From positions 1,789,807-1,853,806 of the forward strand of contig OZ220751.1 in the NCBI GenBank assembly GCA_965117065.1: a stretch of DNA of 64,000 nucleotides. Reading direction: 5' to 3'. Shown piece after piece: positions 1 to 17,718 of this stretch. Every line of letters starts with the position of its first letter. Position 1 is the stretch's first letter. The notes beneath the pieces were generated by a model. It was not told the DNA's origin and made no database searches. It was given only the letters and a program-made list of their open reading frames with translations. Both the position numbers and the translations under genes were made by a program. Source of the DNA: an uncultured Allomuricauda sp. Its GTDB lineage: Bacteria > Bacteroidota > Bacteroidia > Flavobacteriales > Flavobacteriaceae.

Positions 1-529
1 AAACTCCCTATGGAGGAAGCTATTCTGCCGTATGCTTCTTCTGAAAAAGCATCGGTCAACAAATTTAAACTAGCTCCAAAAGCAGCAGCTCCATTAGTTG
101 AAGTTCCTACACCGCGTTGTAACTGGAGACTTTCCGTAGAAGATGCAAAATCGGGCATATTTACCCAAAACGTACCTTGCGACTCTGCATCGTTATAGGG
201 AATCCCATTAATGGTCACATTGACCCGGGTAGCATCACTTCCCCTAACCCGAATTCCAGTGTAACCTACTCCTGCTCCAGCATCGGAAGTAGTAACCACC
301 GCTGGTAAATAATTCAATAAAATAGGAATGTCTTGACCTAAATTACGAGGAGCAATAGTTTCCTTGTCCAAATTTGAAAAAGTAATCGGAAACTCTTTGG
401 TAACCCTGATTGCTTGTACCAATACCTCATCCAGTACAATTTTCTTGCCTTCGAGGGAATCCGTAGGATTTTGTTGTGCACTTATTGAAAGTGCAAGCCC
501 AAAAAGGGCTACAGTTGTGAATAAAGATG
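1..529 (-). CDS. TonB-dependent outer-membrane receptor, N-terminal part (gene runs off the left edge of the window); candidate thiamin-related outer-membrane transporter
   Basis: Missing from ORF track because its stop lies beyond position 1. Minus-strand translation from ATG at 529 gives MKTSLFTTVALFGLALSISAQQNPTDSLEGKKIVLDEVLVQAIRVTKEFPITFSNLDKETIAPRNLGQDIPILLNYLPAVVTTSDAGAGVGYTGIRVRGSDATRVNVTINGIPYNDAESQG..., i.e. signal peptide plus TonB-receptor plug domain. A TPP riboswitch lies directly upstream. Confidence 0.7.
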
Positions 530-629
530 TTTTCATTCGTAAAAAATGTTACGAATAAAAGGGGTTATTATTCTGGTTAAAAATTGATTTGTGTTTCTAA
601 GGAAACATAGAAATTCCAAGATGCGCTTA

Positions 630-710
630 GCGCAATCCCTTGGCAGCATTACCCGCCCAGGTTCATTGGGTATAATCTCAGCCTTTAAAAAGCACCCCTT
701 TGAGATGGGA
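630..710 (-). promoter_or_regulatory. TPP (thiamin pyrophosphate) riboswitch aptamer (THI-box) in the 5' leader of the TonB-dependent receptor gene
   Basis: Minus-strand RNA reads CAUCUCAAAGGGGUGCUUUUUAAAGGCUGAGAUUAUACCCAAUGAACCUGGGCGGGUAAUGCUGCCAAGGGAUUGCGC. It aligns block by block with the E. coli thiM aptamer (GGGGUGC, GGCUGAGA, UACCC, ACCUG, GGUAAUGC..GC.AAGGGA). Boundaries are approximate. Confidence 0.8.
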
Positions 711-810
711 CAAATGTAATGCGACAAAGTTATTTATCACAACAAAAAGTTGATGAAATAACATTTACCAATAGAAATAATTCAAATTCAACAAAAACTC
801 CGCGCTAAAT

Positions 811-840
811 GGAAAAAGGCTGCCGAAGCAGCCTTTTAAA
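811..840. terminator. Bidirectional rho-independent terminator-like hairpin
   Basis: GGCTGC-cgaa-GCAGCC perfect 6-bp stem with GAAA-type loop at 818-833. T-runs follow on both strands (TTTT on plus, TTTTT on minus). Confidence 0.4.
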
Positions 841-929
841 TTGCCAATAATCAATCAAATTATGGAGAAATAGGATTGCAGCTACAATTGGCAATCATGG
901 ATAATGCATGGTTAGTGTTTGCATAGCAT

Positions 930-1046
930 CATCCTTTTTTCTTTTGTTTATTATCTCGATATTCTTGTCTTAAAAAGGGCACCACCAGTACGATTGCAAC
1001 AATAAATGATAGAATACTCACAGCCAGAATTATGGTAAATAGCATT
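930..1046 (-). CDS. Possible small hydrophobic membrane peptide (38 aa), hypothetical
   Basis: ATG at 1046 to TGA at 930. Translation MLFTIILAVSILSFIVAIVLVVPFLRQEYRDNKQKKKG is one TM helix plus a basic tail. It is bracketed by terminator hairpins on both sides. Below the ORF-track size cut-off. Confidence 0.25.
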
Positions 1047-1091
1047 TTAAGTGTTTCTTTTTTTAGGACACTTATTTTTAAAATAAGTCAC

Positions 1092-1118
1092 AAAAAAAGG
1101 TCGTACTAAGTACGACCT
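1092..1118 (-). terminator. Rho-independent terminator of the DUF4301 operon
   Basis: Minus strand: AAGGTCGTACT-t-AGTACGACCTT palindrome followed by TTTTTTT, about 200 nt downstream of the DUF4301 stop. Confidence 0.55.
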
Positions 1119-1322
1119 TCTAACCAAATCAACCAACCAAAAAACTAAGCGTCCAAGCTTAGAGGTGTTTTATTATTTCCTACCGATAGTCTATTTTTTC
1201 TTGCAAGCATTTTTGTGTTGCCACTTATTTATGGGACACTGAATTTTTGACTTAGTCACATGGACCAAAAAAAAGCTCCCAAATCTATGGGAGCCTCAAC
1301 TGTTATAAAGATTACTTTGTTA

Positions 1323-2861
1323 TTATGCCTGATGGCTAGGCTTAAACAAGTCGTTCACCGTTTTTACCGGATTAAAGGTAACCAACGGCACTTCAACAAA
1401 AAGAGTGTTCCAAAAAGCCATGGCACCATTCCACAGTCCTGGGAGCTCTAATGCCTTAAGTTCTTTTCCTTCCTTGGTCTTTCCCGTGATAAAGCCTTGT
1501 TTCTCATCTACAAAATCCAAAAGATTGTACTTTTCACCTTCGTGGTTTTTAACCCCACAAATTAAATCTACTGGATTAAAATGGGTTGAATTTTTAAGGA
1601 TTCCAGCCTGTTCTTTATTGGTTAAATCGATTTGGGCCGATTCAATAATTTGAAGCGAAATATTGCCTTGATCATCACTTATCCAAAAAGGCCCTCCTCC
1701 GGGTTCCCCTTCGTTTTTTACCATCCCACAAACACGAATCGGCCTATTAATTTTATTCCTTAATACGGCAAGCTGCCCATGATCATCCAAACTAGCATAG
1801 TTCTCTGAAAACCGAACATTGAGTTCTTTTTCCAAAAAGGACTTGATCTTGCTTTTAAGTGTTTCAGAAACATCACCCTCTCCGAGAACAGTTGCATATT
1901 CAAATGCTTGGTCTTGTACCTTTTTTAAAACTCCTGCCAACATTTTTTTACTGTTGGCCACTGCTTCCAAATTTTGGTCAATGACCACATTGTCAATATT
2001 CTTGATAAAAATGATATCGGCATCTTGGTCATTGAGGTTCTCAATCAATGCACCATGTCCACCAGGTCTAAACAAAATAGAGCCATCTCCATTTTTAAAA
2101 GGCTTGTTTTCCATATCCACGGCTATGGTATCTGTGGATGATTTTTGGTTGGAGTAAGAAATGCTGAATTCTGTGTTCGTAGCTTGGGAAACCTTTGGCC
2201 CTGTCGAAGCATGCTCCGCTCTGAACATGGCATTATGCTGTTCGGAAATAGTAAAGTGAAGATTGGCCTTACCTGCTGTTTTGGCATAAAGGGCAGCTTC
2301 CTTTAAATGTTCCTCAAAAGGTGTGGCAGTCGAGTTTTCATATTTATGAAATGGTAGTAAACCTTTAGGAAAGAAACCATAGTTTAAGCCTTCAGCCACT
2401 AACATTTCCTTTACGAAAAGATAGACTTTCTCGTCCTTGTTCTCTGTTTTTCCAGCTATCCTTTCCATGATTATCCTATAGAATGGAAAGTTCTCCATTT
2501 CTTCAACGAATTTTTCTATCTCGGAATCAGCGGTCCTGTCTAAATAAGTGGCAAGTGTTTCTTTGGTGGGATTGTAGGTTTCCAAGAAGTTGAAAGCAGC
2601 TTTGAACATCCTTGATGCTGCCCCCGAGGCTGGGACAAACTTTAATAACTGAAGCGTTCCGCGGGTATCCTCAAAATACTGAATCAGATCGTTTTGCTCC
2701 TTCTCAGAAAACCGTAGAATTCCATCACCCACCACAGCCGCCTTGTTTAGGCCAACAAATGGGATTCCCGCTTTGAAGGTGGCGATTTGATTTATTACTT
2801 TTTCTTGGGAAATACCTTTTTTCCCAAGTTGTTCGAGGTCTTTTTGACTTAGGTCAATCAT
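1323..2861 (-). CDS. DUF4301-family protein (~512 aa), with motifs resembling UDP-sugar pyrophosphorylase-type nucleotidyltransferases
   Basis: ORF 1323..2891. The internal ATG at 2861 gives an ATGATTGA start/stop overlap with the upstream kinase gene (translational coupling). Motifs PASGAASRMF, RPGGHGAL and IKNIDNV resemble the G-rich loop, PDGHGD and SNIDNL motifs of UGPase/UAP-type enzymes. The gene is last in the pnuC operon. Confidence 0.55.
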   Translation of the reverse strand: MIDLSQKDLEQLGKKGISQEKVINQIATFKAGIPFVGLNKAAVVGDGILRFSEKEQNDLIQYFEDTRGTLQLLKFVPASGAASRMFKAAFNFLETYNPTKETLATYLDRTADSEIEKFVEEMENFPFYRIIMERIAGKTENKDEKVYLFVKEMLVAEGLNYGFFPKGLLPFHKYENSTATPFEEHLKEAALYAKTAGKANLHFTISEQHNAMFRAEHASTGPKVSQATNTEFSISYSNQKSSTDTIAVDMENKPFKNGDGSILFRPGGHGALIENLNDQDADIIFIKNIDNVVIDQNLEAVANSKKMLAGVLKKVQDQAFEYATVLGEGDVSETLKSKIKSFLEKELNVRFSENYASLDDHGQLAVLRNKINRPIRVCGMVKNEGEPGGGPFWISDDQGNISLQIIESAQIDLTNKEQAGILKNSTHFNPVDLICGVKNHEGEKYNLLDFVDEKQGFITGKTKEGKELKALELPGLWNGAMAFWNTLFVEVPLVTFNPVKTVNDLFKPSHQA

Positions 2862-3423
2862 GTTTATGGAGAAGTTTATCGATGTGTTCAACTGCGGTTT
2901 TGAGCCTTGCTTTTTTATCTCCTTTCAAGATAACGAAATTCCGATTATAATTTTTCAAGGTATTATGGAAATATGCAAACATCCGTTCTCTTTCATTGGG
3001 TTTATCCCTTAAATCATCGGCTTCCCAAGGCGTGTCTATATAAGTCAGAAAATATAGGTCATAGGTGTTCTCCAAGGCATATTTTTCCAGTAATGGGTCA
3101 CAATAGCCCAAGTAATAGGCTTCGGAATAAACTTTGGTTTCCAATAAATCCGTGTCACAAATAAGCACATCGGTTGCTTTCTGGGTCAGATTGTTCTCCA
3201 ATCCAATCTGTCCCTCTGCAATGGGCAACAAATCCTTGGGTTCACAGGTTTTGCGCTCGTTGTTCCATTTGTTCTGTAAATATTCACGCGCATACTCCGG
3301 TACCCATACCGTATTGTATTGTCTCGCTAGTTGCTGTGAAAGCGTGGTCTTTCCAGTAGATTCTGGTCCAAAAAGAACTACTTTAATAAGGTCTGAGGGC
3401 TCTTGCCCAAGTTTTTCTTCCAT
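2854..3423 (-). CDS. NadR-type ribosylnicotinamide kinase-like P-loop ATPase (stand-alone kinase domain, no NMNAT domain)
   Basis: 189 aa with Walker A GPESTGKTT near the N-terminus. It sits immediately downstream of pnuC. The annotated start overlaps pnuC by 46 nt, so the true start is probably a downstream non-ATG codon. Confidence 0.6.
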   Translation of the reverse strand: MEEKLGQEPSDLIKVVLFGPESTGKTTLSQQLARQYNTVWVPEYAREYLQNKWNNERKTCEPKDLLPIAEGQIGLENNLTQKATDVLICDTDLLETKVYSEAYYLGYCDPLLEKYALENTYDLYFLTYIDTPWEADDLRDKPNERERMFAYFHNTLKNYNRNFVILKGDKKARLKTAVEHIDKLLHKHD

Positions 3424-4016
3424 GCCTTATAGCCATAAATGGCAATTATGGTTAGTAAAAAATAGAGCAAAGAGCTAAAAATAAGTCCTTTGTACCAATA
3501 CAAAGGTACTGTGATAATATCACCCACAATCCAATAGACCCAGTTTTCCAACTTCTTTTTTGCCATTAACCACATCCCAACAAAAAAGATAGCCGTTGTT
3601 ATCGTATCAACGTAAGCTGTCCAAACATTGAATCGGTCTGCAAGAAAATATACAACAGAAACGAAAATGATAGTGCCCACAAATAATAGTATGGACCATT
3701 TTTTCTCATTTTTAGTGGTTCTTGTAATTGGCACAAAGTGGGTTTCGTCTACTTTGCGAGTCCACAGATACCACCCAACAATACTCATAACAAAGTAGTA
3801 AGTATTGATAAGCATATCTCCCAGTAGCCCCCAGAAAAGCAAAATGTAGGCAGCTATCCCTGTCCCGATTATTCCGGTTGGATATACCAATATATTCTCC
3901 CGCATGGAATACCAAACACTTAGCAAGGCGAAGACAACGCTAATGAGTTCCAGCACCACGATATGTGTTGGAATACCCTCGTATTGCGAAAAAATCCAAT
4001 CAAAAATGTGGCTCAT
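3378..4016 (-). CDS. pnuC: PnuC-family nicotinamide riboside (Pnu-type vitamin) transporter
   Basis: 212 aa multi-TM protein with the PnuC-like pattern ...LSVWYSMRENILVYPTGIIGTGIAAYILLFWGLLGDMLINTYYFVMSIVGWYLW... Adjacent to the NadR-like kinase. Confidence 0.75.
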   Translation of the reverse strand: MSHIFDWIFSQYEGIPTHIVVLELISVVFALLSVWYSMRENILVYPTGIIGTGIAAYILLFWGLLGDMLINTYYFVMSIVGWYLWTRKVDETHFVPITRTTKNEKKWSILLFVGTIIFVSVVYFLADRFNVWTAYVDTITTAIFFVGMWLMAKKKLENWVYWIVGDIITVPLYWYKGLIFSSLLYFLLTIIAIYGYKAWKKNLGKSPQTLLK

Positions 4017-4260
4017 ACCCGCTTCGATCAGATTTCACAATCTTCATCCCCAATACAACATGTTCCAAGGATCCAAAAGCCTCCTTTATTTCTGTCTGAA
4101 GTAACTCCATCACCTCGTCATAATCCCCGTACACTTGGGTACTTAATGGGTTTTCCAAAACCTTAAGACCTGAGGCTCTTAGCTTTTTAATAAACTCGAT
4201 GATTGGAGGCTCAAAATTATCCTGAAGAGGAGTCAAGGTCAATTCAACGGATATTCTCAT
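4000..4260 (-). CDS. MTH1187/YkoF-family small ligand-binding protein (UPF0045, thiamin-binding protein family)
   Basis: 86 aa: MRISVELTLTPLQ...SGLKVLENPLSTQVYGDYDEVMELL... matches the MTH1187/YkoF family pattern. It is the first gene of the operon and overlaps the pnuC start by 17 nt. Confidence 0.5.
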   Translation of the reverse strand: MRISVELTLTPLQDNFEPPIIEFIKKLRASGLKVLENPLSTQVYGDYDEVMELLQTEIKEAFGSLEHVVLGMKIVKSDRSGYEPHF

Positions 4261-4306
4261 GGGTTAAGATTCATTTTTAAGCAGCAAAGCTAGTAAAAAG
4301 ACCTTA

Positions 4307-4948
4307 TCAGTTCCCCATCATTTTAAAGGCAAAAACGCAGGTAAATCCTTCAAATTCTATAAATTCTATCTCGTAATGGGATTTTTTTCCTTTATATATA
4401 ATCTTGGCCACGGTTCGTTTGTCGTCAAAGGCAAAGTCCATAACGTCAATATGTCTTAAAAAGCTAAGACCTTGCTCTGCGTATATTTTATATAGGGATT
4501 CCTTGGCGCCCCAAACTATGGTTAGCTTTCTTATTATGGCATCAGTATTGGCCAATGTGCGATATTCTTCCAAGGGAGTAAATTTATTGGCAATGCGCAA
4601 AATCTTTTCCCGCTGCATTTCAATATCAATCCCAACCTCATCGGTCTTACTCACAATAATGCCTGTAAAATTGTGTGAATGCGTAATGGATATATGGTTC
4701 CCATCTTGCAGGTGCGGCTTCCCAAAACTATCATAATAAAGGTCCTGGTCCACATAGCCAGCTTCAGCCATAAGATGCCTTATACTTAAAAAAGCGCGTC
4801 GATGAAATTCTGATTTCATCCCATCCATCCTATTTTGACAATGCGGCGTAAGTTCAATGCCCTTGGAAAGTTCATCTTCAGGTTCAGTGACCTTCCAGAC
4901 ATATAGGCTGGTTGTAGGGGAGACCGTAATGGTTTTGTATAAGGGCAC
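4307..4948 (-). CDS. 4'-phosphopantetheinyl transferase (Sfp-type)
   Basis: 213 aa with GIDIE and WGAKESLYK motifs characteristic of the PPTase superfamily. Confidence 0.7.
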   Translation of the reverse strand: MPLYKTITVSPTTSLYVWKVTEPEDELSKGIELTPHCQNRMDGMKSEFHRRAFLSIRHLMAEAGYVDQDLYYDSFGKPHLQDGNHISITHSHNFTGIIVSKTDEVGIDIEMQREKILRIANKFTPLEEYRTLANTDAIIRKLTIVWGAKESLYKIYAEQGLSFLRHIDVMDFAFDDKRTVAKIIYKGKKSHYEIEFIEFEGFTCVFAFKMMGN

Positions 4949-4970
4949 GTCTAAATGTTAAGTGATTTCG

Positions 4971-4978
4971 TATCTTTG
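4971..4978 (+). promoter_or_regulatory. Bacteroidetes-type -7 promoter element (TAnnTTTG) upstream of ahcY
   Basis: TATCTTTG lies 44 nt upstream of the ahcY ATG. A TTTG is also present upstream, but at non-ideal spacing. Confidence 0.3.
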
Positions 4979-5022
4979 CTGACTGGTATAGCTAAGCTAC
5001 ATAAAGTTAATTAAAATAAGAT

Positions 5023-6339
5023 ATGAGCACAAAGACAATTCCTTATGTACCGTATAAGGTAAAAGATATTTCCCTTGCGGATTGGGGCCGAAAAGAGATT
5101 GAATTGGCTGAGGCTGAGATGCCCGGTTTAATGGCGTTGCGGGAAGAGTATAAGGATGAGCAACCTTTAAAGGGTTCGCGAATTGCCGGATGCTTGCATA
5201 TGACCATCCAAACTGCAGTTTTAATCGAAACTTTAATTGAATTAGGTGCTGATGTTACCTGGAGTTCCTGCAATATTTTCTCAACCCAAGACCACGCCGC
5301 CGCCGCAATAGCTGCAGCTGGAATCCCTGTATATGCTTGGAAGGGAATGACTGAGGAAGAGTTTGATTGGTGTATTGAGCAAACTTTGTTCTTTGGAGAA
5401 GACAGACAGCCTTTGAATATGATTTTGGACGACGGTGGGGATTTAACCAATATGGTATTGGATCAGTTTCCTGAATTGGCCGCTGGAGTGAAAGGATTAT
5501 CTGAAGAGACCACAACTGGGGTGCATCGTTTATATGATCGAGTGAAAAATGGGACCCTTCCTATGCCAGCCATCAACGTGAACGATTCTGTAACGAAGTC
5601 CAAATTTGATAATAAATACGGCTGCCGTGAGAGTGCTGTGGATGCGATAAGACGGGCCACAGATACTATGTTGGCCGGGAAACGTGTAGTTGTTGCCGGT
5701 TATGGCGATGTTGGAAAAGGTACCGCAGCTTCCTTTAGAGGAGCGGGAGCTATCGTTACAGTTACCGAAATAGACCCAATCTGTGCACTTCAGGCTTGTA
5801 TGGATGGTTATGAAGTAAAGAAATTGGAAACTGTTGTGGGTAATGCCGATGTAGTAATTACTACTACCGGAAACAAAGACATTATTCGCGAGGAGCACTT
5901 CAGGGCGTTAAAGGATAAAGCCATTGTTTGTAACATTGGTCACTTTGACAACGAGATTGATATGGCCTGGTTAAACGGAACCTATGGCAGTACCAAAGAC
6001 GAGATTAAACCTCAAGTTGACAAATATACCATTGATGGCAAGGATGTTATTATTTTGGCCGAGGGTAGATTGGTGAATTTGGGCTGTGCCACCGGTCACC
6101 CAAGTTTTGTGATGAGTAATTCCTTTACTAACCAAACATTGGCACAAATTGAGCTTTGGAACAATAGTGACAAGTATGAAAACGAGGTATATATGCTGCC
6201 CAAACATTTGGATGAAAAGGTGGCCAAATTGCACTTATCGCGATTAGGGGCTGAGTTAACCGAACTCAGGAAAGATCAAGCGGAGTATATTGGCGTTACC
6301 GTTCAAGGCCCTTTTAAGCCAGAGTACTACAGATACTAG
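5023..6339 (+). CDS. ahcY: Adenosylhomocysteinase
   Basis: 438 aa with full-length AhcY-like sequence including the NAD-binding [10 protein letters not shown] segment. Confidence 0.95.
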
Positions 6340-7167: not shown

Positions 7168-8316
7168 TTAAGATATGGCTATCAAATTCATGTCTGTTAT
7201 TTCCTTATCCAGAAGGGGAATAATCACTTCAAAAAAATTATCCTCTTCTCGTACCAAAACCTGCTTGTTGGTATAATAGGAATATCGCTTTTTTATATTT
7301 TTTAACCCTAATCGGGTAGTTTCCTCATTCAACTGCCTTTTTCGAAGATTGTTTTTTACCACTAAGGCCTCATCGCCAATTGTTGAAATCTGAACTTCCA
7401 AAGGCTTTTCTTTACTATAATAGTTGTGCTTGAGTGCATTTTCCACCAGCATTTGAACGGATAGGGTTGGAATTAGAAAATATTCTGTTGACACTTGGAT
7501 GTCCGATTTAATCACCACAGCATCCTTATGCCGTACATTCATCATAAACACAAAAGAATCCAAAAACCCCAGTTCTTTTTTTAGCGTTACCAAGTCTTGC
7601 TCGCGATGGTCTAAAATGTAACGGTAACTTGATGCCAATCTGGTCACAAAATCTGAGGCCAAATCGCGATCCTCGTACATCAAAGACGTTAGGGTGTTTA
7701 GACTGTTAAACAAAAAATGAGGGCTTATCTGATTCTTTAATGAAGCATATTTAGAGGCCAGCATTTCCCGTTTCAAATCCTCCATTTGCTTGGTCAATTC
7801 ATCCCTTTGGTTCATGGAAAAGTGGAACATATTAAAAAAAATGACGGTCAACCCAAGCAAAATGGCTCTGAAAAAATCGATTGTAAATTCTATAAGAGGT
7901 GGGTCATCACAAATAATACCCCAACTTTCCCTAAAAACAAACAGTCCCAAATAATACACCAAAGCAGTTGTTGGGGCCAAAATGGCAATATTCTTTCCTA
8001 TAATCACAATGCTACTCTTAAAATAGAGACCTCCTTTTGGCCGTTGTTTTTTCAACAACCAATCATTGGTTTCCCAAGTAAGCATAAACAAAAAAAATGC
8101 GCTGACATAGTAGAATACGCTTGTCGCATTAAAAATGCCTTCAACCATATCATCATCCTGTTCCATTGTAATCTTGACCAGAAAAAAGACCACATTGATG
8201 ACCAGTAATCTGAACAATACTTTATAAATCCCTTTCTTCTTCAACATAAAATCTGCTTGGCGTAAAGATACACATCGACAAGTTTCTCTTTTGTCATAGT
8301 CTACTTCAACTGTCAA
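7168..8316 (-). CDS. Sensor histidine kinase (LytS/YehU-type, multi-TM N-terminus)
   Basis: 382 aa with an N-terminal hydrophobic region and the His_kinase motif SPHFLFNSLNTL. Its stop is 3 nt from the response regulator start. Confidence 0.8.
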   Translation of the reverse strand: MTVEVDYDKRETCRCVSLRQADFMLKKKGIYKVLFRLLVINVVFFLVKITMEQDDDMVEGIFNATSVFYYVSAFFLFMLTWETNDWLLKKQRPKGGLYFKSSIVIIGKNIAILAPTTALVYYLGLFVFRESWGIICDDPPLIEFTIDFFRAILLGLTVIFFNMFHFSMNQRDELTKQMEDLKREMLASKYASLKNQISPHFLFNSLNTLTSLMYEDRDLASDFVTRLASSYRYILDHREQDLVTLKKELGFLDSFVFMMNVRHKDAVVIKSDIQVSTEYFLIPTLSVQMLVENALKHNYYSKEKPLEVQISTIGDEALVVKNNLRKRQLNEETTRLGLKNIKKRYSYYTNKQVLVREEDNFFEVIIPLLDKEITDMNLIAIS

Positions 8317-8492
8317 TATATGATTTGAGTTGTCACTTATGGACTTTGTTCGGATTTAAGCTGCAAATGTGTAAAAGTAGTGCCCTAAATGATGGTGCAT
8401 CAGTTCAATAGACAAAAAAGCAATTCAGCTATTTCATAGCCTAACAAATTCATTATTTCCAAGATTTTCGGGGAAACAAAATATAAACCATT

Positions 8493-10874
8493 ATGAAAAA
8501 TACCTTTTTGGCCATTGTGCTTTTAATCTCTTCCATGGGATTTTCCCAAACGGGAATCATTAAAGGAATTGTTCTGGACAAACAATCGGAAAGTCCATTG
8601 GAGGGCGCCACCATAGAGCTTTTGAACATGGAAATTGCCACTGGTGTAATCACAGATTTTGACGGTCAATTTACCTTAAAGAATGTTCCAATTGGCAGGC
8701 AAAGTATCCGGATAAGCTATATAGGGTTCGAGGATACATTTGTTCCCAATATTGAGGTTACCACTGGAAAAGATGTGGTGCTCAACATTACTTTAAGGGA
8801 AAGTTTCAACGCGCTAAAGGAAGTCGTGGTTACTTCAAATTCCAATTTGGACAAACCGAGAAACAAAATGGCAACGGTTTCTGCACGGCAATTTGGGATA
8901 GAGGAAGTGGGCAGGTTTTCTGGAGGTCGGGGAGACATTGGAAGATTGGCTGCTAATTTTGCCGGCGTTTCAGCTCCTGATGACAGTAGAAACGATATCA
9001 TTATTCGTGGAAATTCACCAACGGGCCTACTCTGGAGAATAGAAGGAATACCTGTACCCAATCCCAATCACTATTCCTCCGCAGGCACAACTGGTGGCCC
9101 TGTATCTGCCTTGAATCCAAACATGCTCAAAAATTCGGATTTCATTACCTCAGCATTTCCAGCCGAATATGGCAATGCCATAGGTGGAGTTTTCGATATT
9201 GGTTTGCGAAATGGAAATACAGATGACTACGAATTTGCAGCCCAAGTTGGTGCATTTTCAGGTGTGGAGGCCACAGGAGAAGGTCCTTTGGGCAGTAAAG
9301 GTTCTTTTTTGGTTGCTGGAAGGTATTCACTCGTGGGTTTAATTGGGTCTGCCGGGGCGGGAACCTCTGCTAACCCAAATTATGGAGACTTCTCTTTTAA
9401 TCTCAACTTTGGTAAGGGAAAACTTGGCAGCCTATCCCTTTTTGGAATCGGTGGCACCTCCGATATTGACTTCTTGGGGGATAGCATCGAGGCGGATGAT
9501 CTATTTGCTGCAGAAGATGAAGATGCTTATGTAGAATCTGGCTTTGGGGTTATCGGGGTTAAACATACACTTCCGTTTGGAAAAAAATCTTATTTGAGAA
9601 CAGTGGTAGGTTATTCTACTTCATCCAGTAAGTATACCGCAGACCGCTATTTTGAAAAGGATACGCCGCAGGAAACCATTTTGTTATATACCAAGGATGA
9701 TGAAACGGAAAATCGCCTTACATTCTCTACCTTGTTCAATACTAAAATCAACAACAAAATAACATTTAGGACAGGGTTACAGTACGAAAACTTGTCCTTG
9801 GATTATAGCAATCAAGATCGAGAAGAACAAGCTGATTTAGATGGTGACGGATTCTCAGACCTTGTCACCCTAATAGATATGGACGAAAGTCTAGCTCTTC
9901 TTCAACCCTTTGCCCAGGGCCAATTTAGACTATCTAAGAAACTCACACTAAATACGGGCGTACATGGATTGTATAGTAACTTAAACAAGCAATTTGTATT
10001 TGAACCACGAGCCGGACTCAGTTTTGAAGCCAATGACAACCATAGGTTCAGCTTGGGGTATGGCATTCACTCCCAAAATATTCCAACTCCCATTCTATTT
10101 CTAAACGAGGATATTAATGGCAATCCTGTGCAAACCAACAGGGATTTGGAGTTTGTTAAAAGCGCACATTACGTTTTTGGATATGATGTAAAACTGGGAG
10201 ACAAGTGGCGGGCAAAACTAGAAGCTTATTACCAAGATATAGACAATGTCCCTGTTGATTCGTTTTCCTCAAGCTATTCAACCTTGACCGAAGGAGCCGA
10301 TTTCGGATTTAGTACGGATGCAGTATCCTTGGTCAATCAGGGTACAGCATACAATCAAGGAGTTGAGCTAACTTTAGAGAAATTCTTTAGTCAAGATTAT
10401 TACTTGTTGCTCACCTCCTCTTTTTATCAAAGTAAGTACACGGGTAGTGATACTATTGAACGGAACTCGCCATTTAACAATGGCCAAGTAATCAATCTAC
10501 TTGCAGGTAAGGAATTTGCTATAGGAAAATCTAGGAAAAACAAGTTTTTTGTAGATACACGGGCCACCTATTCAGGCGGGAGATACTATACGCCAATAGA
10601 TCTGGAAACTTCAAGGAATATGGGGTATGAAGTATTGTTTGATAATCTAGCCTATAGCCAACAATACGATAGCTATTTCAGGTGGGATGTGAAGTTAGGT
10701 CTTAAAATAAACAGTAAGGGTAAAAAACAATCGCATCAATTTTACGTGGACATGCAGAACCTAACTAATAAAAACAACATCTTTTCCAGAAGGTATAATA
10801 GACTAACCAACAACATTGATCGCGAAGACCAGATTGGTTTCTTTCCGGATTTTGGTTACCGATTTCAATTCTAG
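8493..10874 (+). CDS. TonB-dependent outer-membrane receptor with N-terminal carboxypeptidase-regulatory-like domain
   Basis: 793 aa: signal peptide, then CarbopepD_reg-like region (GIIKGIVLD...GATIELLN), plug and barrel, with a terminal aromatic residue (…YRFQF). Confidence 0.85.
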   Translation: MKNTFLAIVLLISSMGFSQTGIIKGIVLDKQSESPLEGATIELLNMEIATGVITDFDGQFTLKNVPIGRQSIRISYIGFEDTFVPNIEVTTGKDVVLNITLRESFNALKEVVVTSNSNLDKPRNKMATVSARQFGIEEVGRFSGGRGDIGRLAANFAGVSAPDDSRNDIIIRGNSPTGLLWRIEGIPVPNPNHYSSAGTTGGPVSALNPNMLKNSDFITSAFPAEYGNAIGGVFDIGLRNGNTDDYEFAAQVGAFSGVEATGEGPLGSKGSFLVAGRYSLVGLIGSAGAGTSANPNYGDFSFNLNFGKGKLGSLSLFGIGGTSDIDFLGDSIEADDLFAAEDEDAYVESGFGVIGVKHTLPFGKKSYLRTVVGYSTSSSKYTADRYFEKDTPQETILLYTKDDETENRLTFSTLFNTKINNKITFRTGLQYENLSLDYSNQDREEQADLDGDGFSDLVTLIDMDESLALLQPFAQGQFRLSKKLTLNTGVHGLYSNLNKQFVFEPRAGLSFEANDNHRFSLGYGIHSQNIPTPILFLNEDINGNPVQTNRDLEFVKSAHYVFGYDVKLGDKWRAKLEAYYQDIDNVPVDSFSSSYSTLTEGADFGFSTDAVSLVNQGTAYNQGVELTLEKFFSQDYYLLLTSSFYQSKYTGSDTIERNSPFNNGQVINLLAGKEFAIGKSRKNKFFVDTRATYSGGRYYTPIDLETSRNMGYEVLFDNLAYSQQYDSYFRWDVKLGLKINSKGKKQSHQFYVDMQNLTNKNNIFSRRYNRLTNNIDREDQIGFFPDFGYRFQF

Positions 10875-15645: not shown

Positions 15646-17718
15646 ATGAAAAAGTATATCATTATTTCTGTACTATCCCTTTTTGTTGCAGTATCACATG
15701 CCCAAATTGATCGTAGTAAACAACCCAAACCCGGACCCGCTCCGGAAATTAATTTAAAGGAACCTGCCCGCTTTGAACTTAAGAACGGGCTTAAGGTCAT
15801 GGTGGTGGAAAACCACAAGTTACCTAGAGTTTCAATGCAGCTAATGATTGACAACCCTCCTATTTTACAGGGGAATAAAGCCGGGGTTTCAGATTTAACT
15901 TCCAGCCTATTGGGAAAAGGGTCCAAAAATATGGCCAAGGAAGATTTTTATGAAGAAGTAGATTTTTTGGGGGCTTCCATTAATATTGGAGATCAAGGTG
16001 CATCAGCAAGCTGCTTGTCCAAATACTTCCCCAGAATCCTGGAGTTGATGGCAGATGCCGCCCTAAACCCCAACTTTACCCAAGAAGAGTTTGACAAGGA
16101 AAAAGATCGCATTCTAACGGGTATAAAATCTGAGGAAAAGGACGTCTCCGCCATTGCAACACGTGTACAACTGGCTTTGGCCTACGGTAAAAGCCACCCT
16201 TATGGTGAAATTACTTCCGAAACAACGGTAAACAATGTCACCTTGGCTGATGTAGAACAGCACTACCGCTCCTATTTTGTGCCGGCCAACGCTTATTTGG
16301 TCGTCATTGGCGACGTTGAGTTTGACAAAGTACAGGAATTGGTTACTACTCAATTTACACCGTGGTCCAAGGCCACTCCACCCTCCTATAGTTATTCCAC
16401 CCCAACGGATGTGCAGTACAATCAGATAAATTTTGTCGACGTTCCCAACGCTGTACAGTCAGAAATTGCGGTGCAAAACATCACTAACCTAAAAATGAAG
16501 GATGGGGATTACTTGCCTGCTCTTCTGGCCAATAGAATTTTAGGCGGTGGTTCACAAGCAAGGCTATACATGAATCTCCGTGAAGACAAGGGGTACACCT
16601 ATGGTTCTTATTCCGGAATACGGGCAAATAAGTATAGCCCTATGCGTTTTAATGCTTATGCCCAAGTAAGAAATATGGTCACAGACAGTTCGGTGGTCCA
16701 AATTCTAAAAGAGATTGATGGCATTGTGAACGAAGCTGTTACCGAAGAGGAATTAACCAATGCTAAAGCCAAGTATGCGGGTAGTTTTGTAATGGCATTG
16801 GAAAATCCAGAAACCGTGGCCAATTATGCCTTAAATATAGAAACTGAGGGTTTACCCAAGGACTTTTATAAAGCCTATTTAGAACGTATAGATGCTGTTA
16901 CCATTGCAGACGTACAACAAGCGGCACAAAAGTACTTTTCAACCTCCAATGCCCGGGTGGTAGTTACGGGAAAAGGAAGCGAAGTCCTCGAAAACCTTGA
17001 AAAGGTGACTTTTAAGGATAGAAAAATCCCTGTTTTGTATTATGACAAACATGCTAGTAAAACAGAAAAACCAGATTACTCCGCACCAATCCCTGAAGGC
17101 GTTACTGTTCAATCCATTTTGGAGAACTATATGAGTGCCATAGGAGGAAAGGAAAAATTAGAAGGTGTGCTGTCTTATGCCATGACCGCTGAAGCAGAAA
17201 TGCAGGGTATGAAGTTGGAGCTGGAAATGAAGAAAACAACCAAACACCAATTCATGCAAGACATTAAAGTGATGGGAAACTCTGTTCAAAAACAAGTATT
17301 GGATGGAGAAAAAGGCTATGCCACAGCCCAAGGTCAGCGTAAAGACCTTACTCCAGAAGAAATAGAACGAATAAAAGAGGAATCAGCGGCATTTCCAGAG
17401 CTAAACTATCTCCTAGCTGGTAATTTAGTCCTTGAAGGCATAGAAGCAATTGGAGACAAAAAAGCATACAAGCTCAAGGTTACCGAAAAAAAATCTTGTT
17501 TTTATGATGTTGAATCTGGGCTTAAACTCCAGGTTGTTAATATTGAAGATGTGCAGGGCCAACAAATGATCAACACCCTTGCCTTTGATGATTATCAGGA
17601 AGTATCCGGAATCAAATTTCCATTTAAAATGACCCAGACTATGGGGCCACAAAACTTTGAGTTTGTGGTAAAGGAAGTTAAAGTGAACGAAGGGGTTACA
17701 GCATCCGATTTTGAATGA
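15646..17718 (+). CDS. M16-family peptidase (long, likely non-catalytic partner subunit)
   Basis: The ORF begins at 15604, but the signal-peptide Met (MKKYIIISVLSLFVAVSHAQ) is at 15646, immediately after the upstream stop. Peptidase_M16 and M16_C domains without an intact HxxEH. Confidence 0.8.
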   Translation: MKKYIIISVLSLFVAVSHAQIDRSKQPKPGPAPEINLKEPARFELKNGLKVMVVENHKLPRVSMQLMIDNPPILQGNKAGVSDLTSSLLGKGSKNMAKEDFYEEVDFLGASINIGDQGASASCLSKYFPRILELMADAALNPNFTQEEFDKEKDRILTGIKSEEKDVSAIATRVQLALAYGKSHPYGEITSETTVNNVTLADVEQHYRSYFVPANAYLVVIGDVEFDKVQELVTTQFTPWSKATPPSYSYSTPTDVQYNQINFVDVPNAVQSEIAVQNITNLKMKDGDYLPALLANRILGGGSQARLYMNLREDKGYTYGSYSGIRANKYSPMRFNAYAQVRNMVTDSSVVQILKEIDGIVNEAVTEEELTNAKAKYAGSFVMALENPETVANYALNIETEGLPKDFYKAYLERIDAVTIADVQQAAQKYFSTSNARVVVTGKGSEVLENLEKVTFKDRKIPVLYYDKHASKTEKPDYSAPIPEGVTVQSILENYMSAIGGKEKLEGVLSYAMTAEAEMQGMKLELEMKKTTKHQFMQDIKVMGNSVQKQVLDGEKGYATAQGQRKDLTPEEIERIKEESAAFPELNYLLAGNLVLEGIEAIGDKKAYKLKVTEKKSCFYDVESGLKLQVVNIEDVQGQQMINTLAFDDYQEVSGIKFPFKMTQTMGPQNFEFVVKEVKVNEGVTASDFE

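Follow-up and report, generated by a model that had tools for sequence, protein, structure and literature searches.

A structurally variant, under-annotated THI-box subfamily with a conserved start-codon-centred platform before a TonB-dependent receptor gene of Flavobacteriaceae

In Bacteroides thetaiotaomicron, the outer-membrane transporter OMthi (BT2390) is preceded by a riboswitch and, together with PnuT, aids growth at limiting thiamin (PMC5613172); the riboswitch controls translation and not the mRNA level (bioRxiv 10.1101/867226). In marine studies, omr1 is a TonB-dependent receptor with an adjacent riboswitch for thiamin pyrophosphate (TPP, or thiamin diphosphate, TDP), found in metagenome-assembled genomes of Flavobacteriales, and vitamin B1 uptake by Bacteroidetes has been attributed to omr1 together with pnuC (PMC10881298, PMC12442306). 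The locus described here lies in a stretch of 64,000 nucleotides, called the window below, from an uncultured Allomuricauda sp. (contig OZ220751.1). Its minus strand carries a THI-box (TPP-type) aptamer, followed by the 5' part of a gene for a TonB-dependent receptor. The riboswitch-receptor arrangement is of the known omr1/OMthi kind and is not a new type of system. What, then, is new? The novelty is in the detail: an internal loop of the aptamer is replaced by a covarying pair, the Rfam scores are below threshold, and both the expression platform and a hairpin at the AUG are near-invariant. The locus belongs to a structurally variant, under-annotated THI-box subfamily with an unusually conserved, start-codon-centred platform.

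A first-pass annotation of the window had presented the regulation of such receptors by thiamin riboswitches as a proposal from comparative genomics. The association is indeed known, but it has gone beyond a proposal, as OMthi has been tested both genetically and with reporters (PMC5613172; bioRxiv 10.1101/867226), and omr1 is already a routine marine marker for vitamin B1 (PMC10881298, PMC12442306).

The Rfam model RF00059 (TPP) aligns from end to end (model positions 1-105) with window positions 619-709 of the minus strand at 50.7 bits, with E=4.5e-9 when 501 nt are searched and E=5.7e-7 for both strands of the 64-kb window. It is the sole Rfam match at E<=0.01 in the whole window. The THI-box is on the strand and at the place where it had first been read, and the proposed RF00059 scan did return a significant full-length match, but with a score under the Rfam gathering score for this family, which is 54.3. 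The element had also been called 'textbook'; this description fails, both on the score and because the canonical J4/5-J5/4 loop with C77 and G78 is missing. A default Rfam scan at the gathering score gives zero matches in the window because 50.7 bits is less than 54.3, which is a threshold effect and not an absence. The score is lowered by the lack of the optional P3a, by one mismatch in P1 and by 1-nt deletions in J4/5 and J5/4. The parts of the aptamer are as follows.

619-709, minus strand: THI-box (TPP-type) aptamer, RF00059 match; core 706-631
704-700/635-631, minus strand: P1, aptamer core
698-696/670-668, minus strand: P2, aptamer core
693-689/685-681, minus strand: P3, covaries across orthologues
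680-676, minus strand: J3-2 UGAGA, aptamer core
661-659/640-638, minus strand: P4, aptamer core
657-653/646-642, minus strand: extended P5, covaries across orthologues; L5 at 652-647
698-692, 682-676 and 672-668, minus strand: THI-box motifs GGGGUGC, GCUGAGA and UACCC, read from the sequence
663-658, 654-642 and 641-636, minus strand: THI-box motifs AACCUG, GGGUAAUGCUGCC and AAGGGA, read from the sequence
642-658, minus strand: remodelled pyrophosphate-sensor region, with Rfam-alignment gaps at both junctions and a covarying pair

Four of the five P1 pairs are present in the window in the Rfam register, and orthologues mostly have one to three of the five. The transcription start proposed below would leave just 7 nt on the 5' side of GGGG. 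Two other complementarities were seen. An invariant UCUC (705-702, minus strand) at the putative 5' end is complementary to the GAGA of J3-2, and YUUGG (621-616, minus strand), which follows the first leader hairpin H1, can pair with CCAAG in the 3' strand of P5/P4; this YUUGG:CCAAG helix is present in the ligand-free minimum-free-energy (MFE) structure.

Is the association of aptamer and receptor gene more than a chance one? A genome scan gave 80 orthologous receptor loci (numbered with the prefix L), all in Flavobacteriaceae, and the closest receptor orthologues are those of Flagellimonas/Muricauda, with 85-91% identity. A regular expression finds the THI-box pattern 5' of the receptor in 70 of these loci. 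In the remaining ten the aptamer was seen on inspection, with CCUAG or CCUUG instead of CCUGG, and the pairing is therefore found in 80/80 loci. Among 65 distinct orthologous aptamers there is no variation in GGGGUGC, GCUGAGA and ACCC, with their UGAGA, or in the three G-C pairs of P2. P3, whose base covaries, can be as short as a few nt or as long as ~70 nt. All P5 positions (100%) are paired, by GC, AU or GU in alternation. The occurrence in 80/80 loci and the compensatory changes in P3 and P5 put the aptamer-receptor pairing beyond chance. The original proposal, that the leader of a TonB receptor gene carries a thiamin-type riboswitch and that the receptor is a candidate importer of a thiamin-related compound, is supported by the RF00059 match, the Plug and beta-barrel domains described below and this pairing.

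None of the 11 orthologous leaders scanned reaches the Rfam gathering score (L010, L015, L017, L021, L035, L038, L043, L047, L053, L064 and L073); their aptamers lie ~150-330 nt upstream of the receptor start. E<=1e-3 is reached by one of five orthologous aptamers, that of L064, with 39.6 bits. The receptor aptamers of Flavobacteriaceae are a subfamily that remains under the Rfam cut-off and is overlooked by standard annotation. This explains why such elements are rarely annotated, as the first-pass annotation had rightly remarked. It also follows that riboswitch-based vitamin B1 genotype calls for marine Flavobacteriaceae would be incomplete, as threshold-based Rfam annotation misses the family.

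Promoter, expression platform and start-codon hairpin

The sigma-A -7 box of Bacteroidota has the sequence TAnnTTTG and is situated at -12 to -5 (PMC9723704). Of the 77 distinct upstream regions of the orthologues, 74 contain this box at a fixed distance, and in 62 of the 74 its G is 12-13 nt before GGGGUGC. If the G is at -5, transcription would start at A706 and the aptamer would therefore represent the extreme 5' end of the mRNA. The promoter and the leader elements that lie outside the aptamer core, or overlap it, are listed here.

711-718, minus strand: sigma-A -7 promoter box TACATTTG (TAnnTTTG), consensus match, conserved
706, minus strand: putative transcription start A706, from the position of the -7 box with its G at -5; the mRNA would begin AUCUCAAAGGGG
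695-701, minus strand: AAAGGGG, proposed switching sequence, 5' strand of P1/P2, complementary to CCCCUUU at 564-558
622-634, minus strand: hairpin H1, UGCGC-UAA-GCGCA, abuts the aptamer and overlaps the P1 3' strand
592-607, minus strand: hairpin H2, UGUUUC-CUUA-GAAACA, not terminator-like
567-574, minus strand: conserved box AGAAUAAU, nearly invariant in 69 leaders
553-564, minus strand: invariant 12-mer CCCCUUUUAUUC, exact complement of GAAUAA plus AAGGGG
531-560, minus strand: putative start-codon sequestor hairpin gamma, UUUUAUUCGUAA (560-549), loop, UUACGAAUGAAA (542-531)
519-524, minus strand: second UUAUUC copy, in the coding region at +13..+18, partner of the box when the fold is constrained to the aptamer

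The best-conserved part of the leader is the platform AGAAUAAU-NN-CCCCUUUUAUUCGUA-loop-UACGR-AUG-AAA (window 574-531, minus strand), which is near-invariant and is kept from Flagellimonas to Maribacter, Eudoraea, Algibacter and Flavobacterium. The 14-mer CCCCTTTTATTCGT is present as one exact copy per locus (~12.5 kb each), at the platform site, in 61 of the 80 loci. Across the orthologous loci, AGGGA and the start codon are typically 97-106 nt apart; the aptamer-to-start spacing in the window is about 83-97 nt. Hairpin gamma has 12 bp and a free energy of -10.4 kcal/mol, and the AUG (536-534) lies within its 3' arm. In 69 sequences its cells are 93.4% paired, compared with 42-57% in slid registers. 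The loop varies in length and the inner pairs display compensatory changes; 0 of 500 shuffles reached the covariation score of the hairpin.

The first-pass annotation had not listed this platform but had pointed to two small hairpins, H1 (634-622) and H2 (607-592), as elements that could form it. Both exist, and both are kept as hairpins with changed sequences in near relatives, e.g. H1 as UACGC-AAA-GCGUA in L007, but they are different between genera. The strongly conserved platform consists instead of the box, the 12-mer and the start hairpin at 574-531. H2 was tried as an intrinsic terminator and rejected: a terminator scan between 619 and 536 shows no intrinsic-terminator-like site, and the U-run (583-579) begins 8 nt past the stem, with CAAAUCAA separating the two.

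The platform was also considered as an upstream open reading frame (ORF), and this too was rejected. The in-frame 19-codon ORF of L002 is broken in the window and in Flavobacterium, third codon positions are conserved, and codon positions 1-2 of the NN spacer are variable. A near-match of the 12-mer at 17367-17380 is a chance one, antisense within a 704-aa ORF. A metagenome scan for an AUCC variant of the 12-mer, which asked if the box and the -1 base compensate each other, produced chance 14-mers outside a riboswitch context in all 120 matches listed.

The 12-mer has partners on both sides. AAAGGGG (701-695) and CCCCUUU (564-558) make up alpha, a 7-bp long-range helix that is retained through single-sided changes (CCUC, UCCC); the MFE structure of the unconstrained transcript shows it, with AAGGGGU against ACCCCUU. 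GAAUAA (573-568) and UUAUUC (558-553) make up beta, which is 100% pairable yet invariant; the exception is L031, where GGAUAA is paired with a change to UUAUCC. GAAUAA and then AAGGGG match the 12-mer exactly as its complement, and alpha and beta could therefore join without a break into one bipartite helix of 12 bp, which would be a pseudoknot whose connecting loop is 3 nt long. In the CCUC clade, three runs become longer together: the A's that precede GGGG, the U's within the 12-mer and the A's that follow the AUG; the lengths of the first A-run and the U-run correlate with rho 0.68. With the aptamer enforced in RNAfold, GAAUAA pairs with the coding-region UUAUUC (524-519) and clamps the start region. 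Perfect 6/6 coding-region sites are present in 28/70 leaders, compared with 4-5/70 in control windows, and in Flagellimonas the coding-region UUAUUC motif is retained across different reading frames.

How might these units function together? It appears fairly probable that the THI-box riboswitch at the mRNA start is an OFF switch, acting mainly on translation initiation, of an omr1/OMthi-type receptor for thiamin or a thiamin-related compound. Transcription would come from a separate sigma-A promoter, and the riboswitch would make up the initial ~90 nt of the mRNA. With ligand bound, AAAGGGG would be locked in P1/P2 of the aptamer, and the free 12-mer would pair with the 3' arm UUACGAAUGAAA to give the 12-bp gamma hairpin and bury the AUG; in this genome the GAAUAA box and the UUAUUC copy at +13..+18 would reinforce the burial. 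With ligand absent, AAAGGGG would pair with CCCCUUU (alpha) and GAAUAA with the adjoining UUAUUC (beta), so that the 12-mer is held in the pseudoknotted bipartite helix and the start region is freed. Bacteroidota initiate translation without Shine-Dalgarno pairing (PMC9723704), and structure round the start codon should therefore block initiation. The translational control reported for the OMthi riboswitch of B. thetaiotaomicron (bioRxiv 10.1101/867226) also agrees with this model.

Several observations weigh against this mechanism. In RNAfold the probability of the AUG being unpaired is <=0.06 in the free, the aptamer-enforced and the alpha-enforced ensembles, and the ligand-free MFE (-48.4) is 15 kcal/mol below the aptamer-enforced fold (-33.4). 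With the AUG paired in every ensemble and such a gap, kinetic control or the pseudoknot is required; folding energetics by themselves do not give a switch, as enforcing the aptamer makes no difference to the pairing of the AUG. Without a bulged U, the hairpin register of the CCUC clade places the AUG immediately beyond the stem, and the run-length covariation stems mainly from this same clade and is mostly one evolutionary event. Apart from L031, beta is invariant and therefore uninformative for covariation. RNAalifold called no consensus structure on the platform alignment, and the helices were therefore tested one by one. The aptamer is without a G78 equivalent, and TPP is a putative ligand. 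Lastly, in gut Bacteroidetes spacings of >40 nt are associated with transcriptional control (bioRxiv 10.1101/867226).

The spacing also bears on a different explanation, whereby the riboswitch controls transcription elongation (by Rho-dependent or non-canonical termination) or mRNA decay, and the start hairpin is constitutive and keeps basal translation low. The window spacing is within the >40-nt range, RNAfold retains the AUG hairpin in the ligand-free and ligand-bound ensembles alike, and the spacer has the conserved hairpins H1 and H2 and a U-rich stretch. However, the region 619-536 is devoid of an intrinsic-terminator-like site, CAAAUCAA intervenes between H2 and the U-run, and the leader is A/U-rich and C-poor, which is atypical for a Rho utilisation site. 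In addition, the sequence conserved most strongly in the leader involves the start codon and can pair with the aptamer 5' strand; this would be superfluous if control were purely transcriptional. Control of elongation or decay is thus rather unlikely.

Riboswitch control of translation in Bacteroidota, where Shine-Dalgarno pairing is not used, is an acknowledged question in the literature. The conservation of the platform suggests a route of translational switching in bacteria without Shine-Dalgarno sequences. The invariant 12-mer and the start-codon hairpin offer a concrete model, one open to mutational analysis in genetically tractable Flavobacterium species, where this leader is also present.

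Pyrophosphate-sensor region and ligand

In the Rfam consensus of RF00059, two unpaired nt per side (AU, CG) separate P4 and P5. This J4/5-J5/4 loop includes C77 and G78 (E. coli thiM numbering). The pyrophosphate is held by a metal bound to G60, C77 and G78, of which only G78 also contacts the pyrophosphate directly (PMC3764141). On its 3' side the junction is 1 nt shorter than the consensus, both in the window aptamer and in each of the 80 orthologues, and a G78 equivalent is absent (no G at the site) in 80 of the 81 sequences. The AU/CG loop is down to one nt per side and these two nt covary as a base pair, which is GC12/AU9/GU4/CG1 among 26 distinct arm sequences and unpaired in none. The resulting extended 5-bp P5 helix is 99.2% paired, compared with 19-75% in slid registers, and has compensatory changes at four of its five pairs.

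In the window the G60 equivalent, G658, is opposite A641, and G657, from the former J4/5, is paired with C642, from the former J5/4. The irregularity persists as the G.A mismatch (G658.A641) or, in the Flavobacterium/Algibacter group, as a bulged G. Most sequences retain the G60 equivalent; one clade has A or U instead. Thus P4, P5 and L5 are present, but the RF00059 J4/5-J5/4 loop with G60, C77 and G78 is not. Judged from the aligned sequences, the canonical internal loop is swapped for a covarying base pair across the whole family.

What does such an aptamer sense? One idea is that of a specificity variant, in which the remodelled pocket senses thiamin, thiamin monophosphate (TMP) or a pyrimidine vitamer, or else TPP at much lower affinity. 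The change of the 2x2 loop (AU/CG) to a pair in all 81 sequences would fit, as would the near-universal lack of G78 with its direct pyrophosphate contact and the A or U at the G60 position in one clade. The pyrimidine-sensor elements of the window aptamer, i.e. the P2-P3 helix and the U39-G40-A41-G42-A43 T-loop feature of J3-2, are intact, and transport riboswitches of B. thetaiotaomicron need ~10-fold more thiamin than the biosynthesis riboswitch (bioRxiv 10.1101/867226). On the other side, the rest of the aptamer fits RF00059 (UGAGA, ACCC, J2-4, L5 UAAU, AGGGA), the G.A mismatch or bulged G at the same place could still hold the metal-pyrophosphate, and TPP is a physiologically sensible signal for an importer. 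A change of specificity by itself is decidedly unlikely. A broader proposal joins the pocket to the platform: a distinct THI-box subclass, in which the rebuilt pocket shifts the ligand (to thiamin, TMP or a pyrimidine vitamer) or moves the TPP set-point far upward, and a Shine-Dalgarno-independent switch passes the 12-mer between the bipartite pseudoknot and the start-codon hairpin. This combination is regarded as unlikely.

The family is a natural case of a THI-box pyrophosphate-pocket loop that can be replaced. As such it bears on ligand specificity, and also on the set-point of transport versus biosynthesis riboswitches.

Receptor gene and neighbouring loci

The ATG at 536-534 (minus strand) starts an ORF that has 178 codons in the window and continues past its edge; that the receptor gene is cut there had been recognized from the start. 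The fragment has an N-terminal signal peptide readable in the sequence, followed by a Plug domain. The motif DEVLVQA in the N-terminal part is presumably a TonB box. Orthologous receptors are 667-750 aa long (median 720, 80 loci), and full-length relatives (710-723 aa) consist of Plug and TonB_dep_Rec_b-barrel domains. The receptor of L002, taken as proxy (710 aa, 88% identical to the window fragment), has the Plug and the PF00593 barrel; the barrel of the window gene is beyond the edge. From these domains, the downstream gene is assigned to the TonB-dependent outer-membrane receptors. NCBIfam has no specific model for it, the weak BtuB and heme-receptor matches being far under their cut-offs (for BtuB models and the N-terminal part, 26 bits against a cut-off of 600), and a sequence comparison of the proxy receptor with solved structures gave no match at E<=1e-3.

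The start of the coding region differs among relatives. In L001, L003, L004, L006 and L009 (~5905-6000) the conserved AUG opens a basic extension of ~30 aa before the signal peptide; in the window, L002 and L005 the signal peptide comes directly after this AUG, without the basic extension. A gene for a Gfo/Idh/MocA-family oxidoreductase (~333 aa) is found 3' of the receptor on the same strand in 21/79 loci, including the nearest relatives; in L002 it is at 8176-9177 (plus strand), 43 nt past the receptor stop. From this position, the oxidoreductase may be co-transcribed with the receptor.

The receptor fragment and the features upstream of the promoter are the following.

1-536, minus strand: 5' part of the TonB-dependent receptor gene; Plug PF07715, E=1.2e-9
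~1300-1262, 1166-1138, 1126-1086 and 842-806, minus strand: terminator-like hairpins, from a terminator scan of the spacer
1323-2891, minus strand: DUF4301 protein, nearest upstream gene of the cluster
2854-3423, minus strand: AAA_28 protein, NadR-type kinase, match to the NadR ribosylnicotinamide-kinase domain
3378-4016, minus strand: Pnu-family (PnuC-like) transporter, passes the PnuC cut-off
4000-4260, minus strand: YkoF/Thiamine_BP protein, upstream of the riboswitch on the same strand

The four terminator-like hairpins (-6.5 to -16.4 kcal/mol) lie between the stop of the preceding gene (1323) and the promoter. These hairpins and the receptor's own promoter imply that the receptor is a separate transcription unit. 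The spacer at 720-1322 (minus strand, ~600 nt) is 70-75% conserved, within Flagellimonas only, and has an ORF at 1045-929 (minus strand) of 38 aa with one transmembrane helix and a basic tail. The spacer could hold a small protein gene or a small RNA.

The order Thiamine_BP-Pnu-AAA_28-DUF4301-[riboswitch]-receptor is shared by ~50-60 of the 80 loci, even where protein identity is as low as 45%. In L002, and also in L001, L004, L009 and L011, an insert of ~4.4 kb separates DUF4301 and the spacer from the promoter of the riboswitch. That of L002 includes a hybrid histidine kinase/response regulator (3264-5714, minus strand), and the riboswitch-receptor pair is intact in these loci despite the lost synteny. 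In L013 a second, divergent Pnu-family gene (8264-8818, plus strand; 27% identical to the window Pnu) is found directly 3' of the receptor.

Might the receptor import something other than thiamin, e.g. nicotinamide riboside or another vitamin, as outer-membrane partner of the PnuC-like/NadR-type kinase/DUF4301 cluster, with the THI-box merely coupling it to thiamin status? The conserved gene order would agree with this, as would the Pnu protein, which passes the PnuC equivalog cut-off, the NadR match of the kinase and the description of omr1 substrate specificity as unclear (PMC12442306), but it is very improbable: the riboswitch controls the receptor only, the four terminator-like hairpins and the promoter separate the Pnu cluster, the 4.4-kb insertion breaks synteny in several close relatives where the riboswitch-receptor pair is retained, OMthi of B. 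thetaiotaomicron contributes to growth on limiting thiamin (PMC5613172), and the Pnu gene directly after the L013 receptor is reminiscent of the Bacteroides OMthi-pnuT operon.

The DUF4301 protein is of separate interest. In the literature the family has had incidental mention only and is unstudied. Its invariant motifs are KFVPASGAAxRMF, FRPGGHGAL and IFIKNIDN. It has a weak Pfam match to UDPGP (E=0.019) and a weak co-linear profile match to yeast Ugp1p (PDB). The AlphaFold model (predicted template-modelling score, pTM, 0.75) leads Foldseek to UDP-GlcNAc/UDP-Glc pyrophosphorylases, with a best E=7e-4, probability 1.0 and TM 0.41-0.45. The profile matches and the predicted fold point to a UDPGP-like nucleotidyltransferase. 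Many DUF4301 homologues are 699-aa fusions of AAA_28 and DUF4301, and the nearest named relatives are in Flagellimonas species, with <=79% identity. Since a kinase and a nucleotidyltransferase beside PnuC resemble NadR, nicotinamide-riboside salvage would be the most economical reading; by this analogy AAA_28 and DUF4301 may be a NadR-like pair of kinase and adenylyltransferase.

Comparison with known systems

With the RF00059 THI elements of E. coli thiM and thiC and B. subtilis tenA, the window aptamer has in common the P1-P5 three-way-junction layout, the pyrimidine-sensor helix made up of GGGGUGC/GCUGAGA/ACCC, the junction residues of J2-4 and AGGGA, and UAAU in L5. The position is also the same, in the 5' leader before a thiamin-related gene, and an OFF switch is expected. 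It differs from them in the lack of P3a, the weak P1 and the score of 50.7 bits against 54.3, with orthologues lower; in the covarying pair that replaces the C77/G78 loop; and in the proposed switching, which involves no Shine-Dalgarno sequence and uses as switching strand the 5' side of P1/P2, whose partner is ~135 nt downstream. Cobalamin riboswitch-BtuB pairs follow the same logic, a cofactor-sensing leader riboswitch together with a TonB-dependent vitamin receptor, but aptamer class and ligand are different, and the receptor matches BtuB models weakly (26 bits vs 600).

Closer to the present locus is OMthi (BT2390), from the same phylum, where a TPP-type riboswitch is also directly before a TonB-dependent outer-membrane transporter. 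The OMthi riboswitch of B. thetaiotaomicron is <5 nt from the start codon (bioRxiv 10.1101/867226), whereas in the window the two are separated by about 83-97 nt that hold the conserved platform. Most gut Bacteroidetes have the operon OMthi-pnuT-tnr3 (PMC5613172); here the receptor is alone or is followed by the Gfo/Idh/MocA oxidoreductase. The marine studies of omr1 (PMC10881298, PMC12442306) are without the leader anatomy, unlike the analysis given here. The likeness to OMthi and omr1 rests on the riboswitch-receptor arrangement, with a conserved THI-element in 80/80 loci. As that pairing was already established, the value of the Flavobacteriaceae family lies in its details.

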